Shown here in pieces: positions 6,227 to 56,971 of a stretch of DNA of 64,000 nucleotides. Within the stretch, counting starts at the first letter, position 1, and each line of letters opens with the position of its first letter. The DNA is taken from NCBI GenBank assembly GCA_030837625.1, contig JAUPKF010000001.1, positions 23,496 to 87,495 of the forward strand, read 5' to 3'. A model generated the notes under the pieces. It had not been told where the DNA came from. It was given only the letters and a program-made list of their open reading frames with translations, and ran no database searches. The stretch is from Patescibacteria group bacterium. Lineage in GTDB: Bacteria; Patescibacteriota; Minisyncoccia; Moranbacterales; UBA2206. The translations under genes and the position numbers were made by a program.

Positions 6227-7550
6227 GACGATAAAACTTATTTTGCTAGAGAAGGCGTTGAAGGTGATGGCTGTTTTGGTTTTGAAAAAATATAAGCCGC
6301 GCATAATCGGCATAACCGGATCAATCGGAAAAACTTCCGCCAAGGAAGCTATTTTCACGGTGTTGGCCGGCCATTTTCGGGTTCGCAAAAATGAGAAAAA
6401 TTACAACAACGAAGTCGGTCTGCCCTTGACCATCATCGGGGCGGAGTCCGGAGGGAGATCTTTTGCGGGCTGGTTTTTTGTTTTTCTGCGTTGGCTTCGG
6501 GTGCTGGCTTTGCCTTTCAAATATCCGGAAGTTTTGATTTTGGAAATGGGAGCCGATCGGCCGGGAGACATAAGATATCTGACTAGTTTCATCAAGTCGG
6601 AGATGGCCGTTATCACCGACATCTCATCCAGCCACCTGGAATTTTTCAAAAATATCGAAGGAGTGGCGGCGGAGAAATGGGTGTTGGCGGAAAGCTTGGA
6701 TGGAAAAGGATTGGCGGCGGTTAATATCGATAATTCCCAGATACTCAAGAAAGTGAAGTCTTTACCCAAAGAGAAGGCCAATTTTTTGACTTTCGGCTTT
6801 TCAGAAGAAGCGGAAATCCGCGCCACGGATGTGCTATATAATTATTCTTCGGAAAATGAGACTGAAAGCGCGGGCGAACTCAAGGGTTTGAGCTTCAAGT
6901 TGAACTACAAAGGAACCAGTATTCCAGTACGCCTGAATAATGTTTTGGCTCGGCATAATATTTACGCGGCCTTGGCGGCTATATCGGTCGGAATTGGGTT
7001 TGGACTTAATCTGGTGGAAATCGGAGCGGCTCTGGCTAATTTCTCTATGCCTTGCGGGAGAATGAATCTGATTCCCGGCATAAAAGGTTCTCAGATTATC
7101 GATGACACATATAATTCTTCTCCGGTTTCCGCTTCGGCCGCGCTGGAAGTGCTGGGCAATATTAAAACCGGCAGGAAAATTGCCGTCCTGGGCGATATGT
7201 TGGAGTTGGGAAAAAACACTGAAACAGGACATAGAAGCGTGGCAAAAAAGTTTTTGGAAATCAGGGGAGATATTTTTTTCGCGGTGGGCAAAAGGATGCG
7301 TTTTGCTCTTTCCGAATTGGAGAAAAATAATTTTTCTTCCGACGGTGTATTTGCCTTCTCTGATCCGGAAAAAGCGGGAAGGAAGCTTCAGAGAATCATA
7401 AAAGAGGGCGACGTGGTTCTGGTCAAGGGTTCTCAGGGAATGAGGATGGAAAAAATCGTGGAAGAGATTATGGCAGAGCCTGAAAAATCCGGCAACTACC
7501 TTTGTCGGCAAAGTCCCGCTTGGAAAGAAAAGCCGTGGAAAGAAGTATAA
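6213..7550 (+). CDS. murF: UDP-N-acetylmuramoyl-tripeptide--D-alanyl-D-alanine ligase MurF.
   Basis: Mur ligase P-loop 'GITGSIGKTS' and 'LILEMGADRPGDIRYLT'. The ATG at 6213 has a purine-rich SD and overlaps the ftsI 3' end. The frame start at 6174 is a poly-Lys/Arg readthrough of the ftsI tail. Confidence 0.85.
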   Translation: MTNNKTIKLILLEKALKVMAVLVLKKYKPRIIGITGSIGKTSAKEAIFTVLAGHFRVRKNEKNYNNEVGLPLTIIGAESGGRSFAGWFFVFLRWLRVLALPFKYPEVLILEMGADRPGDIRYLTSFIKSEMAVITDISSSHLEFFKNIEGVAAEKWVLAESLDGKGLAAVNIDNSQILKKVKSLPKEKANFLTFGFSEEAEIRATDVLYNYSSENETESAGELKGLSFKLNYKGTSIPVRLNNVLARHNIYAALAAISVGIGFGLNLVEIGAALANFSMPCGRMNLIPGIKGSQIIDDTYNSSPVSASAALEVLGNIKTGRKIAVLGDMLELGKNTETGHRSVAKKFLEIRGDIFFAVGKRMRFALSELEKNNFSSDGVFAFSDPEKAGRKLQRIIKEGDVVLVKGSQGMRMEKIVEEIMAEPEKSGNYLCRQSPAWKEKPWKEV

Positions 7551-7602
7551 GCATATAAATATAAAGAAATTCTGAATGATAAAAAAATCACTCGCTTTGT
7601 TG

Positions 7603-7631
7603 TTGACAGCCTTTCCAATTATCGCTACAAT
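7603..7631 (+). promoter_or_regulatory. Consensus sigma70 promoter for greA: TTGACA (7603-7608), 17-nt spacer, TACAAT (7626-7631).
   Basis: Read directly from 'ttgacagcctttccaattatcgctacaat'. Confidence 0.55.
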
Positions 7632-7668
7632 TCTCTTTGTTATTTCGTAAGAGTTAAAACAAAAGGTT

Positions 7669-8154
7669 ATGGCTAAATTTGTTACCGAGGAAGGGCTTAG
7701 AAAAATTAAGGAAGAACTGGAAAACAGGAAGACTGCTATCAGGCAATCTATTGCCAACGCGATTAAGGAGGCCAAAGAGCAGGGTGATTTGAGCGAGAAC
7801 GCCGAATACAGCGAGGCCAAGAGGCAGCAGGCGGAAAACGAAGCCCGGGTGACCGAGCTGGAATTTTTGCTTAAGGAATCAACCGTGGTAAAGCGCGACG
7901 AAAGCTCGCAGGTGGTTCAGATGGGTTCTCGCGTAAAAGTGAAATTCTCCGCCAAAGGCGGATCCGCCTCTGGAGGAAACGGCTCGGAAATGGAATTTCA
8001 AATAGTCGGTTCCAATGAAGCCGATCCGGCGGAAATGAAAATTTCCAACGAGTCGCCGATGGGCAAGGCTTTTATGGGCCGTCAGAAAGACGACAAAGTT
8101 GAAGTGGCTACTCCAGGCGGCAAAGTGAAATATGCTATTTTGGATGTGAAGTGA
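7669..8154 (+). CDS. greA: Transcription elongation factor GreA.
   Basis: Begins 'MAKFVTEEGLRKIKEELE' and contains the GreA coiled-coil signature 'EQGDLSENAEYSEAKRQQAENEARV'. Has a C-terminal FKBP-like domain. Confidence 0.9.
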   Translation: MAKFVTEEGLRKIKEELENRKTAIRQSIANAIKEAKEQGDLSENAEYSEAKRQQAENEARVTELEFLLKESTVVKRDESSQVVQMGSRVKVKFSAKGGSASGGNGSEMEFQIVGSNEADPAEMKISNESPMGKAFMGRQKDDKVEVATPGGKVKYAILDVK

Positions 8155-8177
8155 GAGTGAAGTTTATAAAGTTCATA

Positions 8178-8214
8178 AAGTCCGTGGAGTGAAAGCTCGG
8201 CGGACTTTTTTTGG
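8178..8214 (+). terminator. Rho-independent terminator after greA.
   Basis: Stem 'aagtccg' / 'cggactt' followed by a T7 run: 'aagtccgtggagtgaaagctcggcggacttttttt'. Confidence 0.55.
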
Positions 8215-8255
8215 AATGGATTGCAAAAATGGGACGAATGACGTAAAATATAGAT

Positions 8256-8582
8256 ATGGGAGAGGCAAATATATACAACAAGTACAAGGCGCCGGAGAAA
8301 GGGCATAAGGTTTTTCCGGAAAGGAAAAGCGAAGCGGTCAAAGAGAGGAAAGAAAGAAAAATGCTCAACATTCCTCTTGAATATGGAGAAAGCGATTCTA
8401 CCGGAGAGAAGGAAGTCACAAAAGAGGTGACTTATATCGATGGCCAGTGTTTTATCAACGGCAAAGAATCGCGTTTTTCTGATGGCGGAAGGGAAATAAT
8501 AAAACACGGGAAAGAGCATCTTTTGAACGATGAGCAGAGGGAGATTTTTGAAATAGGCAAATTGTTAAAAGAAAAAAAATAA
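8256..8582 (+). CDS. Hypothetical small charged protein.
   Basis: ORF only. Lys/Glu-rich, with no recognisable motif. Confidence 0.3.
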   Translation: MGEANIYNKYKAPEKGHKVFPERKSEAVKERKERKMLNIPLEYGESDSTGEKEVTKEVTYIDGQCFINGKESRFSDGGREIIKHGKEHLLNDEQREIFEIGKLLKEKK

Positions 8583-16045: not shown

Positions 16046-16483
16046 AGTCAGTACGAGTTGCAGCATGCGAATAGCGCACTACGAACGCGCCCATGCGAAT
16101 AATAATTATTGAAAAAACAGCAGTAATTAAAAAGCGACACAACCTTTGAAAACACTTGTAACAAAAATACATCTTTGCGTGTAATATGATTGCATGCAGG
16201 GATGTGTTTTTTTGCTTGCCCCGTGCGAGCGTAGCGAGTTTACGGGGTTCGTGAAAGGCAAGAACTTTGACAATTTAATGAAATATAGTCTAAATCTTTA
16301 TTGGTTCGAGATCCCTCGACTCGTCCGACGATTACGTCGAACTCGCTCGGGATGTGATTTCGTGGCCAAATCAAAGATTTGGACGAAATCACAATTTTTT
16401 GCGATTAGTCCTCGTCCCGCTTCGGCGGGACAAATAGAGTCTATTCAAAATCAAGAATTTATATTCTTTATATAACATTTTTT

Positions 16484-16523
<40 letters not shown>

Positions 16524-16977
16524 GATAAGGCATGCAAGTCGCATGGGTTAGACCCATGGCAAACGGGTTAGTAATACATAGGAACGTACCCCTAAGTCGT
16601 GAATAACCTGGAGAAATCCAGGATAATACACGATATGTTCTACGGAATAAAGATTTACCCCGCACCAAATGCTTGTGCAATTTGGTTGCGACTAAATGTT
16701 AAAGTTGTACTTTTGAAGTACGAACATTTGGTGCGGGGTTTATCGCTTAGGGAGCGGCCTGTGTCCTATCAGCTTGTTGGTGAGGTAAAGGCTCACCAAG
16801 GCTATGACGGGTAGGGGGCGTGAGAGCGTGACCCCCAACATTGGAACTGAGACACTGTCCAAACACCTACGGGTGGCTGCAGTCGAGAATATTCCACAAT
16901 GGACGAAAGTCTGATGGAGCGACGCCGCGTGCGGGAAGAAGGCCCTTGGGTTGTAAACCGCTTTTAATCGGGAAGAA

Positions 16978-17337
16978 ATTGTGTCTCACTATTGTTTGGT
17001 GAAAAAATGTTATGTTTCTTTTTATCTTTTTGATTGAGAGGAGGTAAAAGATGAGCTTGTCAGGAAATTATATTTATGAGGTTCAAGCAGAATATCCTGT
17101 CGAATGCTACACTTGTTCCGGCAGAGAGGACAAGGATGAATGTAGAAAAAGGCGACGAGAAACCCAGCTCAAAATACGTGACAGCTTCATTTTTGTTCCC
17201 AAGAGAGAATGCTCTTGCCGGGCAAAACTTCCGTATCCCCTTCATAAAGGAGAGTAGCGATGCGGGATTGCGGAACCTCGCGGTCTCGCAATCTCAATTC
17301 TTAAAGTAAAAATTACAAAACAATAGTGAGGCACAAT
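16978..17337 (+). other. Intervening sequence 1 in the 16S gene, about 360 bp, in the V3 region (E. coli roughly 455-480). It is bracketed by a 17-nt inverted repeat and contains a 68-aa Cys-rich ORF at 17051-17257.
   Basis: Conserved 16S sequence stops at 'gggaagaa' and resumes at 'ttgacggtaccg'. The insert begins 'attgtgtctcactattg' and ends 'caatagtgaggcacaat', which are exact reverse complements. The internal ORF 'MSLSGNYIYEVQAEYPVECYTCSGREDKDEC...' has a plausible 'gaggaggtaaaagATG' ribosome-binding site. Confidence 0.7.
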
Positions 17338-18008
17338 TTGACGGTACCGATTGAATAAGAGGTTGCTAACTCTGTGCCAGCAGCAGCGGTAATACAGAGA
17401 CCTCAAGCGTTATCCGGATTTATTGGGCGTAAAGAGCATGTAGGCGGATATGTTAGTCAGACGTCAAATCTTCGAGCTTAACTCGAAAACTGCGTTTGAA
17501 ACGGCATATCTTGAGGAAGTGAGAGATCAATGGAACGTATGGTGTAGCAGTGAAATGCGTTGATATCATACGGAACACCAAAGGCGAAGGCATTTGATTG
17601 GCACTTTTCTGACGCTGAGATGCGAAAGCGTGGGTAGCGAATGGGATTAGATACCCCAGTAGTCCACGCCGTAAACGATGCATACTAGGTATTAGGAGAA
17701 TCGACCCTCCTAGTGTCCAAGCTAACGCGATAAGTATGCCGCCTGGGAAGTACGAGCGCAAGCTTAAAACTCAAAGGAATAGACGGGGATCCGCACAAGT
17801 GGTGGAGCATGTGGTTTAATTCGACACTAAGCGAGGAACCTCACCAGGGCTTGAAACCTAGCTGCATTGTATGGAAACATACAAGCCTTCGAGGGTGCTA
17901 GGCAGGCGTTGCACGGTCGTCGTCAGCTCGTGCCGTAAGGTGTTCTGTTAAGTCAGGAAACGAGCGCAACCCCTATCGCGTGTTACAAGTGTCACGCGAG
18001 ACTGCCCA

Positions 18009-18133
18009 GAACTTTGGGCGTTAGCCCAAAGTAGTAGCATGTATCATGTAGAATGTATTATGTATGCAATTTTATACATTATACTTCCTACAAAATACTT
18101 TATACTACTTTGTGAGCGATAGCGAACAAAGTT
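18009..18133 (+). other. Intervening sequence 2 in the 16S gene, about 125 bp, between the 'gagactgcccag' and 'tgggaggaaggcgggg' blocks (E. coli roughly 1130-1140).
   Basis: AT-rich insert flanked by the inverted repeat 'gaactttg' ... 'caaagttc'. The insert opens with its own hairpin 'ctttgggcgttagcccaaag'. Confidence 0.6.
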
Positions 18134-18854
18134 CTGGGAGGAAGGCGGGGATGACGTCAGATCAGCGTGGCCCTTTGACGCCCTGGGCAACACACGTGCT
18201 ACAATGGCCGAGACAAAGGGTTGCCAAGCCGCAAGGCGGAGCTAATCCCAAAAACTCGGTCTCAGTTCGGATTGAGGTCTGCAACTCGACCTCATGAAGC
18301 CGGAATCACTAGTAATCGTGAATCAGCTATGTCACGGTGAATACGTTCTCGGATCTTGTACTCACCGCCCGTCATACCAAGAGAGTCGGTAATACCCGAA
18401 GATCACGTTTCAAAGCGTGAGCCACGGTAGGATCGATAATAAGGGTAAAGTCGTAACAAGGCATCCGTAGGGGAACCTGTGGATGGATCACCTCCTTTCT
18501 AGGGAGAATTTGGTAATAACCGAGAGTACTTCACGTTAAGACGCATAGGGTCAAACCTAGCGTTGTGAAGTATGGTTGTTATCCGCTGGTCGACCCCGAT
18601 GCAAATCGGGGAACAGCAATGCCTAACAGAGCTAACAGAATCTGTAGTAAGTTTTGTACAGCTTACGGTAAACTCTTATAGGACTAATCGCAAAAAATTG
18701 GGATACTATAAAATGAAAACACCTTGAATGGTGTTTTTGTCGTTTTCTCCTTGGGAATGGTTCATTCGGTTGACTGACCTGGCATAAAAATGTTAGCTTT
18801 TAGTTGGGCAGAACTTTGACATATAAATGCGTTATTAGATGAGGGAGGCAGTTT

Positions 18855-38875: not shown

Positions 38876-39289
38876 ATGAAAATTGGCATAATAGGTTCAA
38901 TGCAGTTTACTGACAAAATGGTTGAGGTCAAGGCGGATCTTATAAAATTGGGACATGATGCGTTTATTACGGACTTGCATAAAACCATGATTGGAAAAAC
39001 AGATGAAGAGATTGAACAAATCAAACTTCATCAAAAGTATAATATGGATGCGATTCGTGAGTTTTGAAATGCTATGCAGGGAGCGGACGCTGTCCTTGTT
39101 TTGAATTTTGATAAAAATGGCGTCAAAAATTATGTTGGTGGAAATACCCTCATGGAAATCGGTTTTGCCCATGTTTTGAATCAAAAAATATTTATGTGGA
39201 ATCCAGTACCGGATATGCCATATTGCAAAACAGAAATTGAAGCCGTCAAGCCGGTTATCATTGATGGAGATTTAGTAAAAATAGCCTAA
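38876..39289 (+). pseudogene. Nucleoside 2-deoxyribosyltransferase-like protein interrupted by a single in-frame TGA at 39065-39067.
   Basis: ORFs 38876-39067 and 39074-39289 are in the same frame. 'MKIGIIGSMQF...' plus '...ADAVLVLNFDKNG...GGNTLMEIGFAHVLNQKIFMW' together resemble one nucleoside deoxyribosyltransferase-like fold. Confidence 0.5.
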
Positions 39290-43727: not shown

Positions 43728-44750
43728 ATGTTTAAAAAGAAAAAAACTTACATAATATTCGCGCTGGTTATTTTGGCTGTGGGCGGTTATTTTTACCAAA
43801 AATCCAAAGCGCCTAAAGCGGAATATACAACGGCGGAGGCGCGGAGAGGAACGCTTAGTCAGACTGTTTCTGTTACAGGCGCGGCAGCTTCCCGGCATGA
43901 AGTGGAGTTGTCTTTCAAGACCAGCGGGATCATTCAGAATCTGTACGTTGATATCGGGGATAGAGTGGAAAAGGGGCAAAAAGTGGCGGTTATCGACAAA
44001 GGCACTCTTTATGCCGAGCTCAGTCAAGCCAAACAAAACGTGACGGCGCAAAAGCAAACGCTGGCCAATATGAAACGCGAGGGAAACGCTTTCAAGGTCG
44101 AACAGGAAAACGCCCAGCGAGCCGAAATCAGAAAGGCTGAAGCGGCGGTGGGACAAATTTACGCCAGATTTGCCGATACGGTTTTATATTCTCCGATGGA
44201 CGGGATCGTTATTCGACGAAACGGGGAAGTGGGAGAAACCATCACTGCCAATTCAGCGGCTTCCAACACTCCGGTGGTGACGGTGGCGCAAGAAGGGGAT
44301 TTGGAAGTGAAAGCCGATGTGCCGGAATCGGACATTGTGAAAATAGCGCTGGGGCAAAAAGCGGACATAACCTTGGATGCTTTTTCTTCCAGCAAGGATG
44401 TCTTTGAAGGAGAAGTAATCGACATCGAACCGGCATCGACCGTTATCCAGGACGTCGTTTATTATAAAGTGAAATTTAAGATATTGAATTACGACCAAAG
44501 GATAAAAAACGGCATGAGCGCCGACCTTGATATCAAAACAGCTTCCAAGGATAATGTTATTTTCGTTCCGGAGCGCGCCGTGAAAGAGGAAAACGGCAAA
44601 AAGTACGTTGAGATCTTGAAAGACGAAGCGACGAGCGAGGTTGAAAAAATCTTTGTCGAAACGGGACTTAAGGGAAATGAGGGGATGATTGAAATAACGA
44701 AAGGGTTGAATGGCGGAGAGAGGGTTGTGACGCTCACAAAGACACCGTGA
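43728..44750 (+). CDS. HlyD-family periplasmic adaptor (MacA-like) of a tripartite ABC efflux system.
   Basis: N-terminal transmembrane anchor. Biotinyl/lipoyl-like motif 'VSVTGAAASRHEVELSFKTSGII' and 'ADTVLYSPMDGIV'. C-terminal beta-barrel domain. Confidence 0.85.
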   Translation: MFKKKKTYIIFALVILAVGGYFYQKSKAPKAEYTTAEARRGTLSQTVSVTGAAASRHEVELSFKTSGIIQNLYVDIGDRVEKGQKVAVIDKGTLYAELSQAKQNVTAQKQTLANMKREGNAFKVEQENAQRAEIRKAEAAVGQIYARFADTVLYSPMDGIVIRRNGEVGETITANSAASNTPVVTVAQEGDLEVKADVPESDIVKIALGQKADITLDAFSSSKDVFEGEVIDIEPASTVIQDVVYYKVKFKILNYDQRIKNGMSADLDIKTASKDNVIFVPERAVKEENGKKYVEILKDEATSEVEKIFVETGLKGNEGMIEITKGLNGGERVVTLTKTP

Positions 44751-44752
44751 TT

Positions 44753-44778
44753 GTAGGGGTTTGATTTATCAAACCCCG
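44753..44778. repeat. REP-like hairpin immediately upstream of the RAYT gene.
   Basis: 'tgtaggggtttgatttatcaaacccc'. The inner 22 nt are palindromic. The reverse complement recurs at 45127-45152. Confidence 0.6.
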
Positions 44779-44790
44779 TTGACTCAAAAA

Positions 44791-45402
44791 ATGCCATACA
44801 AAAACAGAAAATCTAACCGTTTAGAGAATTATGATTATTCTCAAAACGGTATGTATTTTGTAACAATATGCACAAAAGACAGGGTTGAGCATTTCGGAGA
44901 AATTAAAGATGGCAAAATGATTTTGAATGAGTCGGGAGAAATTGCGTTGAAAAATTTACGTGACGTATCAAATCATTTTGAAAGCGTATGTTTGGACGAG
45001 TATGTTGTTATGCCGAATCACCTTCACTGCATATTGGAAATTGATACGGCGGTGCAATTTTTGGATAAACCGGATGTAGGGGTTCAATTTATTGAACCTG
45101 TTGTTGACGCGGGGTTTGCCGAGGGCGGGTTTGATAAATCAAACCCCTACGCAGCGTGTATAGGAAACAATCCAATGTTAATGAGCAAAACAACATTGGG
45201 AAAGATCATCAGATATTGCAAGGCAAAGACGGCCTGTGAAATTCGTGGGAGCATGGATTTTTGGCAGTTTGCCTGGCAGAAAAATTATTATGACCACATT
45301 GTTCGCAATGAAATATCTCTCAATAAAATTCGTGAGTATATTCAGGAAAATCCAAAAACGTGGGAACGGGACAGAAATAATGTTGAAAATTTAAACATGT
45401 GA
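44791..45402 (+). CDS. REP-associated tyrosine transposase (RAYT, IS200/IS605-like Y1 HuH transposase family).
   Basis: 'MYFVTICTKDR', HuH motif 'VVMPNHLHCIL' and catalytic Tyr motif 'WQKNYYDHIVRNE'. A roughly 25-aa insert lies between the motifs ('VGVQFIEPVVDAGFAEGGFDKSNPY'). It is encoded by REP-like hairpins. Confidence 0.8.
   Translation: MPYKNRKSNRLENYDYSQNGMYFVTICTKDRVEHFGEIKDGKMILNESGEIALKNLRDVSNHFESVCLDEYVVMPNHLHCILEIDTAVQFLDKPDVGVQFIEPVVDAGFAEGGFDKSNPYAACIGNNPMLMSKTTLGKIIRYCKAKTACEIRGSMDFWQFAWQKNYYDHIVRNEISLNKIREYIQENPKTWERDRNNVENLNM
45077..45152. repeat. REP-like hairpin doublet inside the RAYT coding sequence. It is the inverse copy of the upstream REP.
   Basis: 'gtaggggttcaatttattgaacc' and 'gggtttgataaatcaaacccctac'. 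The flanks 'gtagggg ... cccctac' form an outer inverted repeat. Confidence 0.55.
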
Positions 45403-45412
45403 TGACAAAATA

Positions 45413-45460
45413 AAAAAAGCAGACTGCGCGCCGGTAACGCTGGGCGCGAATCTGCTTTGT
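45413..45460 (-). terminator. Rho-independent terminator for the minus-strand gene below (it may also act on + transcripts from the RAYT).
   Basis: GC-rich stem 'gcagactgcgcgcc' / 'ggcgcgaatctgc'. On the minus strand it is followed by a T6 run (the A-run at 45413-45419). Confidence 0.55.
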
Positions 45461-45484
45461 GAACGAGGAAAAAACGGAGGCGGT

Positions 45485-45817
45485 TCAGGTCGGAGACATA
45501 AGCATCTCGATAGCATCAACGAGATCGTCTGTGCCTCCTAATCTGTACCGATTTACGAAAATCTCCGATAATCTTGCCTCTCGCTCGGCTACGTTATTGT
45601 CGATAGCGCGGGGACAGGTCATACCGGGAATTCCCTGAATCAGTCGAACTTGTGCCTTTGAGACGGCGATGCCATCGTTCTCATGGTCTCTGGCGAAGTT
45701 GAGGAGGTCGGCAATTTCGGATCTTGTCAGTGGATGATAGTCAGGAAGATCTTTATCAAGAGGTATGTCCCCATAGGCTTCATGCGGGCATGGAATTTCA
45801 AATGCGTACTTTCTCAT
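45485..45817 (-). CDS. Hypothetical protein of 110 aa in a GC-rich (about 50%) foreign-looking cassette on the minus strand.
   Basis: ORF 'MRKYAFEIPCPHEAYGDIPLDKDLPDYHPLTRSEIADLLNFARDHENDGIAVSK...'. Strong SD 'aaggag' 9 nt upstream of the ATG. Has its own consensus promoter and terminator. No family was recognised. Confidence 0.5.
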   Translation of the reverse strand: MRKYAFEIPCPHEAYGDIPLDKDLPDYHPLTRSEIADLLNFARDHENDGIAVSKAQVRLIQGIPGMTCPRAIDNNVAEREARLSEIFVNRYRLGGTDDLVDAIEMLMSPT

Positions 45818-45923
45818 GACGTTATTTCTCCTTTCTGGTCTGGATTGGCTTGCTAAAGACGGTTGAAGTTTCCCCTCAAGTGAGGGCTTCCTCGACACTA
45901 AAACTTTTAAGAACTAATCTTAC

Positions 45924-45952
45924 ATTATACACCCAAACCCATGAAAAGTCAA
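45924..45952 (-). promoter_or_regulatory. Consensus sigma70 promoter on the minus strand: TTGACT, 17-nt spacer, TATAAT with a TG extension. It drives the 45485-45817 gene.
   Basis: The reverse complement of 45924-45952 reads 'ttgacttttcatgggtttgggtgtataatg'. Confidence 0.5.
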
Positions 45953-46789
45953 CCCCCCACCAATTCCAAAGAAAGATTAAATAATCAGAAGGATTATGGC
46001 ACGGAATCGTCTAGCGGCTCGAATTTTTCTTATTCTGAGTCAGGTGAGAGAATTGGTAGGGGGCAAGGCGCGTTAATCCAAGTTCAAAATCTCTGCAAGA
46101 CTTACGATAACGAAGGCGTGAAGACGGCGGCGATGTGCGGCGCGAGTTTTGTTATTGGAAAGGGTGAGTTTGTTTCGATAATGGGGCCGAGCGGGAGCGG
46201 GAAATCGACGCTGATGCAGATTTTGGGAATGCTGGACCGGCCGACGGAGGGGAAATATTTTTTCGAAGGGAAAGATACTTTCGGTTTTGACGATGACACG
46301 CTGGCGGGAATCCGCAACAAAAAAATCGGGTTTGTTTTTCAGTCGTTCAATTTGCTTCCAAGAACTTCGGTCTATGAAAATGTGGAGTTGCCGTTGCTTT
46401 ATGATTCCAAGCCGGACGGGCAGAACAGGAAAAAAGTTATGGACGCGCTCCTGGCGGTTGGGATGGAACATCGGGAGAAATATCTTTCCAATCAACTCTC
46501 CGGCGGGGAAAAACAACGGGTGGCGATCGCGCGGGCTTTGGTCAACAATCCGGACGTGGTTTTTGCCGACGAGCCGACGGGAAATTTGGATTCCAAATCC
46601 GGTCTTCAGGTAATGAAAATTTTACAAAAATTAAATAACGACGGACATACTATAATTTTGGTGACTCACGAGACTTACACTGCCGAGCACGCCGAGAGGA
46701 TACTTTATATGAAAGACGGACAGATTGTTGCTGATGATCCGGTGAGGAATCGGAGGATGGCGGATGGAGAAAGCGAGCTTTTGAAATAA
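45941..46789 (+). CDS. ABC transporter ATP-binding protein (MacB/LolD-type) with an unusual, roughly 50-aa Ser/Gly-rich N-terminal extension.
   Basis: Walker A 'GPSGSGKST', Q-loop, signature '[15 protein letters not shown]', Walker B '[11 protein letters not shown]' and H-loop 'LVTHE'. Confidence 0.85.
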
Positions 46790-56017: not shown

Positions 56018-56971
56018 TTAGGCGCTGGAAGAATCGGAGTGCTTCCTTATGACATACATCGGGCGGTGAAGAATCTCTTTATGGATGTTGGCGATATAAA
56101 GGGAAATAAGTCCGATCGATGTCAGAATGATTCCTACTAGAAAAACGATGAAGATAGCTAGGTTTTCCGCGTCGGAAAAAGTTGAGGCGAAATGCCAGCC
56201 GAAAAAATATTTTCCAATCATTATATAAAAACCGATAATTCCCGAGAATATTGTGATGAAGATGCCCAAATAGCCGGCCAGCTTTAGCGGAACAAGGCTG
56301 AGAGATATGAAGCTGTTGAGAGCGAGCTTTACGAGCTTAAAGAAACTATAACTGGCAGTTCCATGAAGGCGCTTATTGGCTTCAAAATGGATATATTCCC
56401 GCCTGAAACCTAGCCAATCGATAAGTCCGCGAGTCATTCGCTGTGTCTCGGTAAAACGGTTAAATTCATCGATTACTACCCGGTCTAAAAGGCGGAAGTC
56501 AGTCGAATTTGGCATAATCTCCGTTTCAATTATGCTGTTAAGGATTTTGTAGAAAAGCTTGGAGCCCAGTATTCGGATTTGTGAATCGCTCTGGCTTTTC
56601 TTTCTTACCCCGATGACTACTTCAAAGCCTTGTTCCCATTTGCGGATAAAATCGGGAATGAGTTCCGCTGGATGTTGCAAGTCGGCATCCAGGATTATGC
56701 AAGCATCTCCGGAGCAGTAGTGGAGTCCCGCGGTAGTGGCAATTTCTTTGCCGAAATTGCGCGAAAAATCGACCAACTTGACGCTTGAATCATCCCGAGT
56801 CAATCTTTTTATCTCTTTGCCGGTCCCATCTTTGCTTCCGTCGTTCACAAAGATGATTTCTCGGGAATATTTTTCCTTGAACGGATCGAGAACTTCTGCT
56901 ATCTTTTCATAGAGGGGCCGGATGTTCATTTCTTCGTCGTAGGCGGGAATTATGATAGAGATGGATTTCAT
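56018..56971 (-). CDS. Family 2 glycosyltransferase (DPM1/ArnC-like polyprenyl-phosphate sugar transferase) with C-terminal transmembrane helices.
   Basis: Minus-strand ORF. 'ISIIIPAYDEE', 'VNDGSKDGT' and 'ILDADLQHP' (the DxD region), plus two C-terminal transmembrane helices. Confidence 0.85.
   Translation of the reverse strand: MKSISIIIPAYDEEMNIRPLYEKIAEVLDPFKEKYSREIIFVNDGSKDGTGKEIKRLTRDDSSVKLVDFSRNFGKEIATTAGLHYCSGDACIILDADLQHPAELIPDFIRKWEQGFEVVIGVRKKSQSDSQIRILGSKLFYKILNSIIETEIMPNSTDFRLLDRVVIDEFNRFTETQRMTRGLIDWLGFRREYIHFEANKRLHGTASYSFFKLVKLALNSFISLSLVPLKLAGYLGIFITIFSGIIGFYIMIGKYFFGWHFASTFSDAENLAIFIVFLVGIILTSIGLISLYIANIHKEILHRPMYVIRKHSDSSSA

Follow-up and report, generated by a model that had tools for sequence, protein, structure and literature searches.

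A lineage-variable slot in a MacAB-type exporter operon of a Patescibacteria group bacterium and the small Cys-His-Cys protein gene that occupies it

The junction between the HlyD and ABC ATPase genes of this Patescibacteria/Parcubacteria chromosome is a lineage-variable site, a slot by which a MacAB-type exporter operon, conserved in other respects, is split. The gene that occupies it here, X110, is a genuine monocistronic, stand-alone gene, and its product belongs to a previously unnamed yet widespread family of small proteins. The explanation that we find reasonably probable overall is that X110 is an accessory gene in this variable slot, that it reuses a promoter belonging to the locus, and that it encodes a metal-site protein. 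We hold the anatomy of the locus as described below (slot, promoter and genes) with good confidence.

The HlyD-ABC junction and the X110 gene

The window, that is, the whole stretch of DNA that was analysed, is 64,000 nucleotides long and carries the following features at and around the slot:

43728..44750, + strand: HlyD-type membrane-fusion gene, the conserved left flank (Pfam HlyD_D23 3.1e-18, HlyD_3 9.9e-13)
44756..44777, no strand assigned: REP-like perfect palindrome GGGGTTTGAT-TT-ATCAAACCCC (fold -14.8 kcal/mol, z -2.8)
44791..45402, + strand: RAYT / IS200-like Y1 transposase gene, 203 aa from its ATG (Pfam Y1_Tnp 5.7e-6)
45412..45455, - strand: intrinsic terminator of X110 (hairpin 45455..45419, then U7 at 45418..45412)
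45485..45817, - strand: X110 coding sequence, a 110-aa Cys-His-Cys small protein (ORF list, family of 328 representatives, AF2 model)
45818..45917, - strand: 5' UTR of X110, approximately 100 nt (transcription start inferred from the position of the -10 element)
45828..45833, - strand: Shine-Dalgarno sequence AAGGAG of X110, 10 nt 5' of the ATG (read from the sequence)
45913..45952, - strand: predicted divergent promoter (-35 TTGACT at 45952-45947, 17 nt, -10 TATAAT at 45929-45924, block AGATTAGT at 45920-45913)
45941..46789, + strand: MacB-type ABC ATPase gene, the conserved right flank (Pfam ABC_tran 4e-32)
45953..46063, + strand: 111-nt insert creating the ATPase extension, with 14-nt inverted repeats at its bounds (I10, 93% complementary)

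The genes around the slot, from 39 to 51 kb, are ACS, RecJ, RNase H, HlyD, RAYT, ABC, two FtsX genes and a prenyl (polyprenyl) synthase; the MacAB-type exporter string is thus represented by an HlyD-family adaptor, an ABC ATPase and two MacB_PCD/FtsX permeases, all with Pfam matches. The HlyD gene is syntenic across 22 related loci, and the order ACS-RecJ-RNaseH-HlyD-ABC-FtsX-FtsX is kept in 12 related Parcubacteria-type contigs. X110 is missing from all 12 relatives that span the HlyD-ABC junction, and in L020, L021, L022 and L028/L029 the two genes abut, with a gap of 22-63 nt, as is the arrangement in more distant relatives; the interruption of the HlyD...ATPase operon that an earlier, sequence-only reading had proposed is therefore upheld. 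Other relatives have at the junction a RAYT, a nuclease of the DUF559 or GIY-YIG type, or further small genes on the minus strand, and the plus-strand half of the slot is filled by selfish nuclease or transposase genes (RAYT, DUF559, GIY-YIG).

The six closest lineages are the window and its five nearest relatives (L012-L016); in four of them, the window and three relatives, a small ORF led by a sigma-70 promoter sits in the slot, a comparison of slot content that comprises four metagenomic contigs. The ORF is X110 in the window; in L015 it encodes a membrane protein of 101 aa, in L016 an ORFan of 95 aa and in L014 a Cys-rich peptide of 39 aa. All four ORFs differ, each is strongly SD-led and each ends in its own hairpin terminator. 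The slot of L013 holds a RAYT alone, and the L012 contig ends too soon to show what its slot contains. All four slot genes have a Shine-Dalgarno sequence, as against just 7 of the 55 window genes (counting SD-like motifs of any kind) and 2 of 24 core genes in the relatives; the 3' end of the 16S rRNA contains CACCUCCUUUCU. Apart from the last codons in L014, no coding remnants of X110 were found in the L012-L016 slots. No homologues of the L016 slot protein were found, and the idea that every slot gene comes from a scattered family is therefore not supported. The motif CTAATCAGTGGTTC, which lies upstream of genes in some relatives, does not occur in the window.

X110 itself runs from an ATG at 45817-45815 to a TGA stop at 45487-45485 (minus strand) and is contained in a longer, GTG-started ORF of 137 aa; since the homologues align from X110 residue 4-8, the ATG is the start. 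The product is identical to the NCBI hypothetical protein QG620_65, and the frame is intact and 100% identical in contigs of two other sequencing runs. As the sequence-only reading had noticed, it is a lone minus-strand gene in a long plus-strand run: it is the sole supported one from position 1 to the GT2 glycosyltransferase at 56018-56971.

The promoter and transcription start of X110 are predictions from consensus matches. The promoter fits the consensus at 11 of 12 positions and is the top promoter-like site within 43-48 kb; the 64-kb window as a whole has 8 sites of this type where 1.75 would be expected. The TTGACT-17-TATAAT promoter described earlier was recovered, minus its extended -10 element: the TG is absent in the promoter scan. 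The roughly 100-nt 5' UTR shows no significant folding (z +1.0) and has no Rfam match at E<=1, and a riboswitch or leader RNA was accordingly set aside. The AAGGAG (45833-45828) is where a Shine-Dalgarno sequence had been claimed, 10 nt ahead of the ATG. Likewise, the claimed stem-loop with a T-run is present: on the minus strand the hairpin at 45419-45455 (-24.1 kcal/mol, z -4.0) is followed by U7, and it also forms on the plus strand (-24.3 kcal/mol), 17 nt past the RAYT stop.

The neighbouring RAYT matches Y1_Tnp with 26.9 bits against a cut-off of 23, has a GC content of 37.5% and is single-copy in the window. Its ORF opens at a TTG at 44761, and a 203-aa RAYT product is called on L002. 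The REP-like palindrome lies 6 nt past the HlyD stop, upstream of the RAYT start; the only related copies in the whole window are at 45075-45150, an in-frame doublet inside the RAYT gene, so X110 does not lie within REP boundaries. The X110 terminator hairpin was considered as a REP element and rejected, being unique in the window. The RAYT at the same site in L013 is a different one (41% identity) and is not accompanied by X110.

The promoter, the L014 relic and composition

The promoter is kept as TTGACA-17-TATAAT-nnn-AGATTAGT in L015 and L016, ahead of unrelated small genes; L014 has a variant, TTGACA-17-TAGAAT, without the AGATTAGT block. It also overlaps the ATPase gene, as the sequence-only reading had stated: the ATG at 45941 lies inside it, its -35 element falls on the ABC start region, and it reads outward from the ABC start. 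Because the promoter is common to relatives that lack X110 and overlaps the native ABC start, it appears to be borne by the locus rather than by the insert, and to call it the cassette's own promoter is not supported for a sequence conserved at the locus and common to L015 and L016 in front of unrelated genes. The -35 element could owe its conservation to that of the ABC start (ATGTCAA), and the -10/AGATTAGT block could be kept for a plus-strand ABC promoter instead of the minus-strand one.

The atypical N-terminal extension ascribed to the ATPase is real: none of the 12 relatives aligns with it before residue 44/45. The 111-nt insert that creates it is single-copy in the window and folds with -36.4 kcal/mol (z -2.1). 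The native ATPase start region is collinear with L015 and L016.

In L014, positions 7571-7660 hold a relic of X110, comprising its last codons and the terminator, with 82% identity over about 90 nt. Between the window, L015 and L016 the slot genes have unrelated 3' hairpins, and that of the window is common to L014 only. Since L014 keeps the 3' end of X110 together with the terminator, the insertion would predate the split of the window and L014 lineages and is not demonstrably recent.

Nor does composition mark X110 as foreign. The segment had been described as GC-rich, with a GC measurement suggested as a check; measured per gene, X110 has 48.8% GC, HlyD 47.4%, the ATPase 47.3% and the two permeases 50.0 and 48.4%, that is, 47-50% in the flanking core genes, within a range of 35-52% across window genes and a window mean of 44%. 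The apparent contrast arises because the RAYT (37.5%) and AT-rich spacers adjoin X110, and GC was discarded as a sign of foreign origin. Scored against plus-strand genes, the codon usage of X110 is the most atypical among 55 genes (z -5.4). Its third-position (fourfold) G/C skew, which rests on 24 fourfold sites, is -0.42, compared with -0.37 in the minus-strand GT2 gene and +0.21 in plus-strand genes; since GT2, the only other real minus-strand gene, is alike, the odd codon usage is attributable to strand asymmetry, and it too was dropped as a sign of foreign origin. X110-family genes elsewhere show no intrinsic C-bias. Combined, the relic in L014 and a skew like that of a resident lagging-strand gene speak against the recent acquisition that had been suggested.

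We thus propose that the promoter belongs to the locus and that small genes would be exchanged beneath it; the X110 cassette (SD, ORF and terminator) would have been in place before the window and L014 lineages split, and would since then have acquired the lagging-strand composition of its host.

The X110 family, its possible role and alternative explanations

X110 had been called an orphan, with a profile search recommended; a word search already returns 9 homologues, and an exhaustive profile search finds at least 328 cluster representatives of about 100-125 aa at E<=1e-3, of which 243 pass E<=1e-10. The family signature is Cys10-x-His12 ... Arg58-Leu-x-Gln61-Gly-Ile-x-Gly65-x-x-Cys68-Pro, with C10 conserved in 92%, H12 in 91%, R58 in 99%, Q61 in 93%, G65 in 98%, C68 in 96% and P69 in 98%; position 28 is His in 68% and Tyr in 18%. 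Among 139 family members, C10, H12 and C68 are co-conserved in about 90% and H28 in 68%. The X110 protein is acidic (pI 4.8) and helical, and has no signal peptide or leader-like N-terminus. Its AlphaFold (AF2) model is confident (pLDDT 95.5, pTM 0.88), and no convincing fold neighbour was found for it. Searches against Pfam-A, NCBIfam, PHROGs and PADLOC matched 0 families at E<=1; no curated family recurs among 138 family members, and the profile returned nothing below E 0.39 from PDB sequences. Phage or plasmid origin was also sought directly, and was not borne out: tblastn gave no match in 50,697 phage records or 72,556 plasmid records.

Leads to function come from fusions and neighbors. 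Three family members (P0080, P0170 and P0175) are fused to an alpha-CTD-like domain (PF03118), and in the CPR genomes L010 and L040-42 the homologue lies in a TopA - X110 homologue - Sigma70_r4/HARE-HTH - DUF8128/DUF87/TrwB neighbourhood; these partners are also nearby in L036 and L001. The neighbourhood signal amounts to about 4 of about 14 contexts, some of them probably from related organisms. The other contexts are unrelated to it: MOSC, MFS, methyltransferase, a tRNA-Glu-adjacent islet and two phage-like contigs, one of 146 kb, where the homologue overlaps the stop of a PRPP-synthase-like gene within a NAMPT/NUDIX/NAD-kinase cluster. TopA, sigma-like and TrwB genes are absent from the window, the ZAS-type anti-sigma motif HxxxCxxC occurs neither in X110 nor in the family consensus, and a literature search for DUF8128, or for HARE-HTH in Patescibacteria, gave no match.

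C10, H12 and C68, with H28 where present, most likely hold a metal ion (probably Zn) or a redox centre, which would staple the N-terminal arm and the 58-69 loop onto a four-helix core. Because the alpha-CTD-like fusion and the Sigma70_r4/HARE-HTH, TopA and DUF8128/DUF87/TrwB neighbors recur, X110 probably binds a partner in transcription or DNA handling, rather than being an enzyme, a toxin or an exported peptide. We offer this mechanism, a putative metal-site protein that binds a partner, as a tentative proposal. A toxin/antitoxin role, which had also been suggested, does not fit a monocistronic unit with no partner ORF and no PADLOC or Pfam match. More speculative again is a joint reading in which the HlyD-ABC junction would be a promoter-anchored exchange slot (with integron-like logic but without integrase or attC) and X110 the first member to be noticed of a new fold family of Cys-His-Cys metalloproteins, one that modulates a CPR sigma-like/HARE-HTH and VirD4-like DNA-handling module and is borrowed by large phages too; we regard it as doubtful.

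A phage connection could also be more direct. X110 may be an anti-defence or other phage or mobile-element accessory protein in a chromosomal hotspot, since an IMG/VR contig of 327 kb encodes one family member amid small ORFs and close to a Macro-domain gene, another lies on the 146-kb contig, which is phage-like and encodes PolB, one follows a tRNA-Glu gene, some adjoin TrwB/VirD4-like ATPases, and X110 itself is small, acidic, stand-alone and next to a RAYT. We consider this unlikely, and the least so of the alternatives: the phage and plasmid records gave no match, X110 has no PHROG or PADLOC match, no defence system is near it in the window, and in several CPR genomes the homologues sit among core genes (DprA, TopA, LeuRS, YchF). 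The account favored by the sequence-only reading, in which a moron-like cassette of foreign composition arrived recently with a promoter, SD and terminator of its own, would explain why X110 is in none of the 12 relatives while HlyD and ABC abut in several, why a strong SD occurs within an SD-poor genome and why the codon usage is so atypical; homologues elsewhere also lie behind TTGAC(A/T)-17-type promoters and ahead of hairpin terminators. This now seems a poor prospect, however, as the GC content is native-like, the codon anomaly vanishes when strand is considered, the promoter is common to relatives without X110 and overlaps the native ABC start, and the relic in L014 makes the insertion older than the split.

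In bacteriocin loci, conserved export machinery is accompanied by variable small genes, and the slot genes, including X110, might similarly be tied functionally to the MacAB-type exporter, whether as variable substrates, as immunity proteins or as regulators. In four lineages this exact operon junction holds a small gene that looks strongly expressed, the one in L015 encoding a membrane protein and the one in L014 a 39-aa peptide rich in Cys, and the promoter overlaps the ABC start, so that both transcription units could be coupled. Set against this, X110 lacks a leader-like N-terminus, none of about 13 other X110-family contexts has an HlyD/ABC exporter, and most relatives have the exporter operon without any slot gene; the idea is quite improbable. 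That the neighbouring RAYT/REP element has X110 as its cargo, the two having moved together, is very improbable: the two genes are adjacent and convergent with one bidirectional hairpin between them, and REP-like palindromes flank and lie inside the RAYT, but L013 has a RAYT at the slot without X110, no other family member adjoins a Y1 transposase, there is no REP copy beyond X110, the REP sequence and the terminator hairpin are unrelated, and the L014 terminator relic is paired with a DUF559 gene, not a RAYT. Finally, a spurious ORF or decaying pseudogene with signals arising by chance is effectively refuted by 328 homologous cluster representatives with a conserved motif, a confident fold prediction and an intact frame repeated identically in the contigs of the two other sequencing runs.

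Significance and comparison with known systems

If our reading of the locus as a variable slot with its own promoter is true, it offers a compact natural case of gene turnover under a fixed promoter inside an operon, in an ultra-small, largely uncultivated bacterial lineage, and a promoter, SD and terminator around a gene are not by themselves proof that a whole cassette was imported. X110 also adds a sizeable nameless family (at least 328 clusters, with a confident predicted fold and no structural neighbor), which has a conserved Cys-His-Cys site and is genetically linked to genes for transcription and DNA uptake in CPR bacteria, most of whose small proteins are still functionally dark. Taken alone the finding is modest: hypothetical small genes and insertion hotspots of selfish nucleases are common in such genomes.

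Small regulators that dock on the transcription machinery by way of a metal or redox centre include the ZAS anti-sigma domains and the alpha-CTD-binding Spx. X110 resembles them, as a lead only, in being small, acidic and stand-alone with conserved Cys/His residues, in the linkage of its family to a sigma-region-4 protein and in the fusion of some members to an alpha-CTD-like domain. As a site, the slot is reminiscent of the integration hotspots and islets, flanked by core genes, that are generally known from bacterial chromosomes: the same core-gene junction carries varying accessory content, including DUF559, GIY-YIG and transposase genes. It differs in being very small (0.2-1.2 kb), in lying inside an operon and in having a conserved outward promoter that is apparently reused. 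Integrons combine a fixed Pc promoter with exchangeable promoterless cassettes, and by functional analogy the slot has a fixed promoter, a fixed site and different small genes per lineage; unlike an integron, it has no tyrosine-recombinase integrase nearby (among the genes of 39-51 kb), no shared attC-like site (the hairpins that end the slot genes being unrelated between the window, L015 and L016) and one gene per lineage rather than an array.

The neighbouring gene, for a Y1 (IS200-like) transposase, has REP-like palindromes both next to it and inside it, and resembles in this the RAYT/REP (REPIN) systems (PMC3116915, PMC3337134); X110 lies outside this system, as the RAYT and X110 are each found alone in related loci. 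The morons of temperate phages are independent transcription units, inserted where related genomes have two neighbouring genes (PMC3594210). Like a moron, X110 is one small gene flanked by two that abut in relatives, with a promoter ahead and an intrinsic terminator behind, and is predicted to be transcribed independently of, and against, its neighbors. Unlike a moron, it lies in a bacterial chromosome operon and not in a prophage (as the synteny of RecJ, RNase H, exporter and polyprenyl synthase across 22 loci indicates), and its composition is not deviant; moreover, the promoter appears to be part of the recipient locus, with different genes swapped beneath it.

The exporter junction in relatives and its insertions

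With the HlyD protein as query we recovered 22 related metagenome loci, in which the order is conserved: ADP-forming acyl-CoA synthetase, RecJ, RNase H, HlyD, ABC ATPase and two MacB/FtsX permeases. HlyD/ABC adjacency in relatives, a comparison proposed by the sequence-only reading, proved informative: in several the two genes abut, and none of the 12 loci spanning the junction encodes X110 there (the 110-aa Cys-His-Cys protein of the window).

Contents of the HlyD-ABC gap in related metagenome loci
L020, L021, L022, L028/L029: genes abut (22-63 nt)
L017, L019, L025: AT-rich spacer (139-240 nt)
L013: a different RAYT (41% identical), nothing more
L014, apparently also L012: DUF559 nuclease gene
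L016: GIY-YIG nuclease gene

By this comparison the operon is ancestral and the junction a hotspot; judged from the aligned loci, X110 is an accessory gene sitting in it. The closest relative, L012 (HlyD 81%, RecJ 87% identical), carries two GC-rich perfect palindromes directly after HlyD and then, like L014, a DUF559-like ORF start (MYAK...; together 7011-7227), and its contig stops short of the ABC gene. A near-identical motif of about 25 nt, GTG(C/T)TAATCAGTGGTTCAGACAATT, abuts the ATG of several genes (HlyD, Perm1 and Perm2 of L021; L028/L029; L016). The window lacks this motif, for which a lineage-specific element (promoter, leader or repeat) is one possible reading.

The RAYT of the window matches Y1_Tnp above threshold, with a perfect REP-like palindrome (related to GGGGTTTGATTTATCAAACCCC) just upstream at 44756-44777 and a REP-like inverted doublet, in frame, inside its ORF (45075-45150); no other REP-like copies were found over 64 kb, and at other loci RAYT is not linked to X110-family genes. 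The atypical N-terminal extension noticed earlier on the ABC ATPase is real: it comprises 44 residues absent in all relatives, which align only from residue 44/45. It is accounted for by a 111-nt stretch right after the ABC start codon (45953-46063), MITE-like, single-copy in the window and bounded by 14-nt inverted repeats (45953-45966, CCCCCCACCAATTC; 46050-46063, GAATTGGTAGGGGG), so that the extension is a separate small insertion, unrelated to X110. The native start region can still be made out, with its ATG apparently mutated to AAG and a new ATG lying 9 nt upstream of it; translation may begin at 45941 or, past the insert, at a non-canonical codon.

Expression signals and a promoter shared across lineages

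The minus-strand orientation, promoter, Shine-Dalgarno sequence (SD) and hairpin with T-run claimed for X110 are all present:

45817 (ATG) to 45485 (stop), minus: X110 ORF, 110 aa, nested inside a longer GTG-started frame
45952..45924, minus, upstream of X110: promoter-like TTGACT-17-TATAAT, 11/12 consensus positions
10 nt before the X110 ATG, minus: SD, AAGGAG
45455..45419, downstream of X110: 37-nt terminator hairpin followed by U7 (-24.1 kcal/mol, z -4.0)

The promoter had been read as extended; its TTGACT-17-TATAAT core stands and the TG extension of the -10 is absent. This is the top promoter-like site across 43-48 kb, sites of such quality numbering 8 in the 64-kb window vs 1.75 in block shuffles. 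The leader of about 100 nt is no more structured than expected (z +1.0), and Rfam gave no match for it. Since the same hairpin also forms on the plus strand, 17 nt past the RAYT stop, it can serve both convergent genes. Almost all genes of the window lie on the plus strand, the sole other supported minus-strand gene being a GT2 glycosyltransferase (56018-56971); a candidate 95-aa minus-strand ORF (38897-39184), with no Pfam match, occupies part of the 435 nt separating two plus-strand genes.

The promoter appears to belong to the locus and not, as had been supposed, to X110: it is common to relatives that lack X110, and its -35 reads as the reverse complement of ATGTCAA, the conserved start of ABC. 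In aligned ABC upstream regions, minus-strand TTGAC(A/T)-17-TATAAT-nnn-AGATTAGT is common to the window, L015 and L016, the L014 counterpart being TTGACA-17-TAGAAT without the AGATTAGT block; the eight lineages that span the junction and have no minus-strand gene all lack the -10. Past AGATTAGT the lineages no longer match: behind a strong SD, each has a small ORF unlike the others, closed by a hairpin terminator of its own. L015 encodes a membrane protein of 101 aa there, L016 an ORFan of 95 aa (annotated in a "Parcubacteria group bacterium" MAG) and L014 a Cys-rich peptide of 39 aa (MSADCGCNPGPGRYCPLCGNDGPSLPPKEEKRKEGKEEKK; about 7748-7867, minus). The gene for this last peptide has GGAGG as its SD, ends in a separate GC-rich hairpin terminator and lies upstream of a relic of the X110 terminator. 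An SD is present in 4/4 slot genes, in a lineage where SDs are scarce (7/55 window genes; 2/24 core genes of relatives L013-L021), despite a canonical 16S 3' end (CACCUCCUUUCU). The 16S rRNA gene of the window (16478-18498) is 2021 nt long against a 1533-position model, about 490 nt extra (insertions or intron), and holds a 102-aa minus-strand ORF (17453-17761).

Composition and age of the cassette

The segment had been described as GC-rich and recently acquired, and neither holds. For this genome its GC is ordinary, 48.8% for the ORF vs 47.3-50.0% in the exporter genes (HlyD 47.4%, ABC ATPase 47.3%, Permease 1 50.0%, Permease 2 48.4%; window mean 44%); the apparent step arises because RAYT (37.5%) and AT-rich spacers (24-30% GC) lie beside it. 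Synonymous codon usage of X110 scores lowest among 55 genes (z -5.4 vs a plus-strand model), and a foreign origin of that usage was set aside because the minus-strand GT2 gene, second lowest, behaves alike. G/C skew at fourfold sites is -0.42 in X110 and -0.37 in GT2, vs +0.21 in plus-strand genes; intergenic DNA has a skew of +0.15, and values for family members of other genomes run from -0.29 to +0.29. On these few sites, X110 looks equilibrated to the chromosome's lagging strand.

L014 holds an 82%-identical copy, about 90 nt long, of the X110 terminator hairpin with the last few codons and stop; no further X110 coding remnant was found there. The relic places an X110-type cassette at the site before the window and L014 (HlyD 77% identical) diverged, and the L014 cassette would later have been overwritten from the promoter side. 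The slot is 100% identical in contigs from two other sequencing runs. The sequence-only reading was thus partly confirmed in its observations (signals and strand right; GC richness and orphan status wrong) and partly supported in its interpretation, with an accessory gene in a hotspot upheld, recency and a private promoter not.

The protein family and its possible role

No model in Pfam-A, NCBIfam, PHROG or PADLOC matches X110, yet it is no orphan: a word-indexed search gave nine relatives (one an identical NCBI entry), and an exhaustive profile scan across 1.84 billion cluster representatives retrieved 328 with E<=1e-3, of which 243 reached E<=1e-10; nearly all have 100-125 aa. Over 139 members, C10 (92%), H12 (91%), D26 (86%), R58 (99%), Q61 (93%), G65 (98%), C68 (96%) and P69 (98%) are conserved, as are P29/L30 and L59; position 28 is His in only 68%. 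From just nine sequences AlphaFold2 modelled X110 at pLDDT 95.5 and pTM 0.88, with an N-terminal arm, two one-residue bridges and four main helices. The family is real, conserved and foldable, of moderate size, unnamed and uncharacterised; a Pfam scan of all 138 aligned members gave no recurring family. Joint conservation of Cys-x-His and the distal Cys, each of them in a loop, points to a possible metal or redox centre.

Genomic contexts are diverse. A CPR-type string recurs in four loci with family members (L010, L040-42): DprA ... TopA, X, a Sigma70_r4/HARE-HTH protein (350 aa) and a DUF8128/DUF87/TrwB ATPase (900 aa), spanning 3608-12486 in L010 and 106-9965 in L040. In L036 (5041-7411) the latter two genes lie a few kilobases from the family member, in L001 the member is flanked by DUF87/TrwB ATPases, and in three cluster representatives the X110 domain is fused to an RNA-polymerase alpha-CTD-like domain. 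The literature searched had nothing on DUF8128, nor on Patescibacteria and HARE-HTH. Most economically, X110 might be a small metal-site protein whose binding partner works in transcription or DNA handling. The main alternative, that it could be an anti-defence protein, is likewise tentative. Large phage-like contigs carry two of the family members, and X110 matched nothing in reference phage and plasmid collections. On one such contig (L035, 146 kb, with PolB and RNA ligase; 7000-8330) the member's reading frame overlaps a PRPP-synthase-like gene at its stop and is translationally coupled to it, amid a NAMPT / NUDIX / NAD-kinase cluster (NAD salvage) whose layout recalls phage NAD-reconstitution modules.

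Loci of this kind, in which an accessory gene occupies a hotspot flanked by core genes, are already known, and in layout X110 is moron-like (phage moron, PMC3594210); a conserved promoter apparently reused by different small genes, as the alignments indicate, is an unusual twist on that layout.
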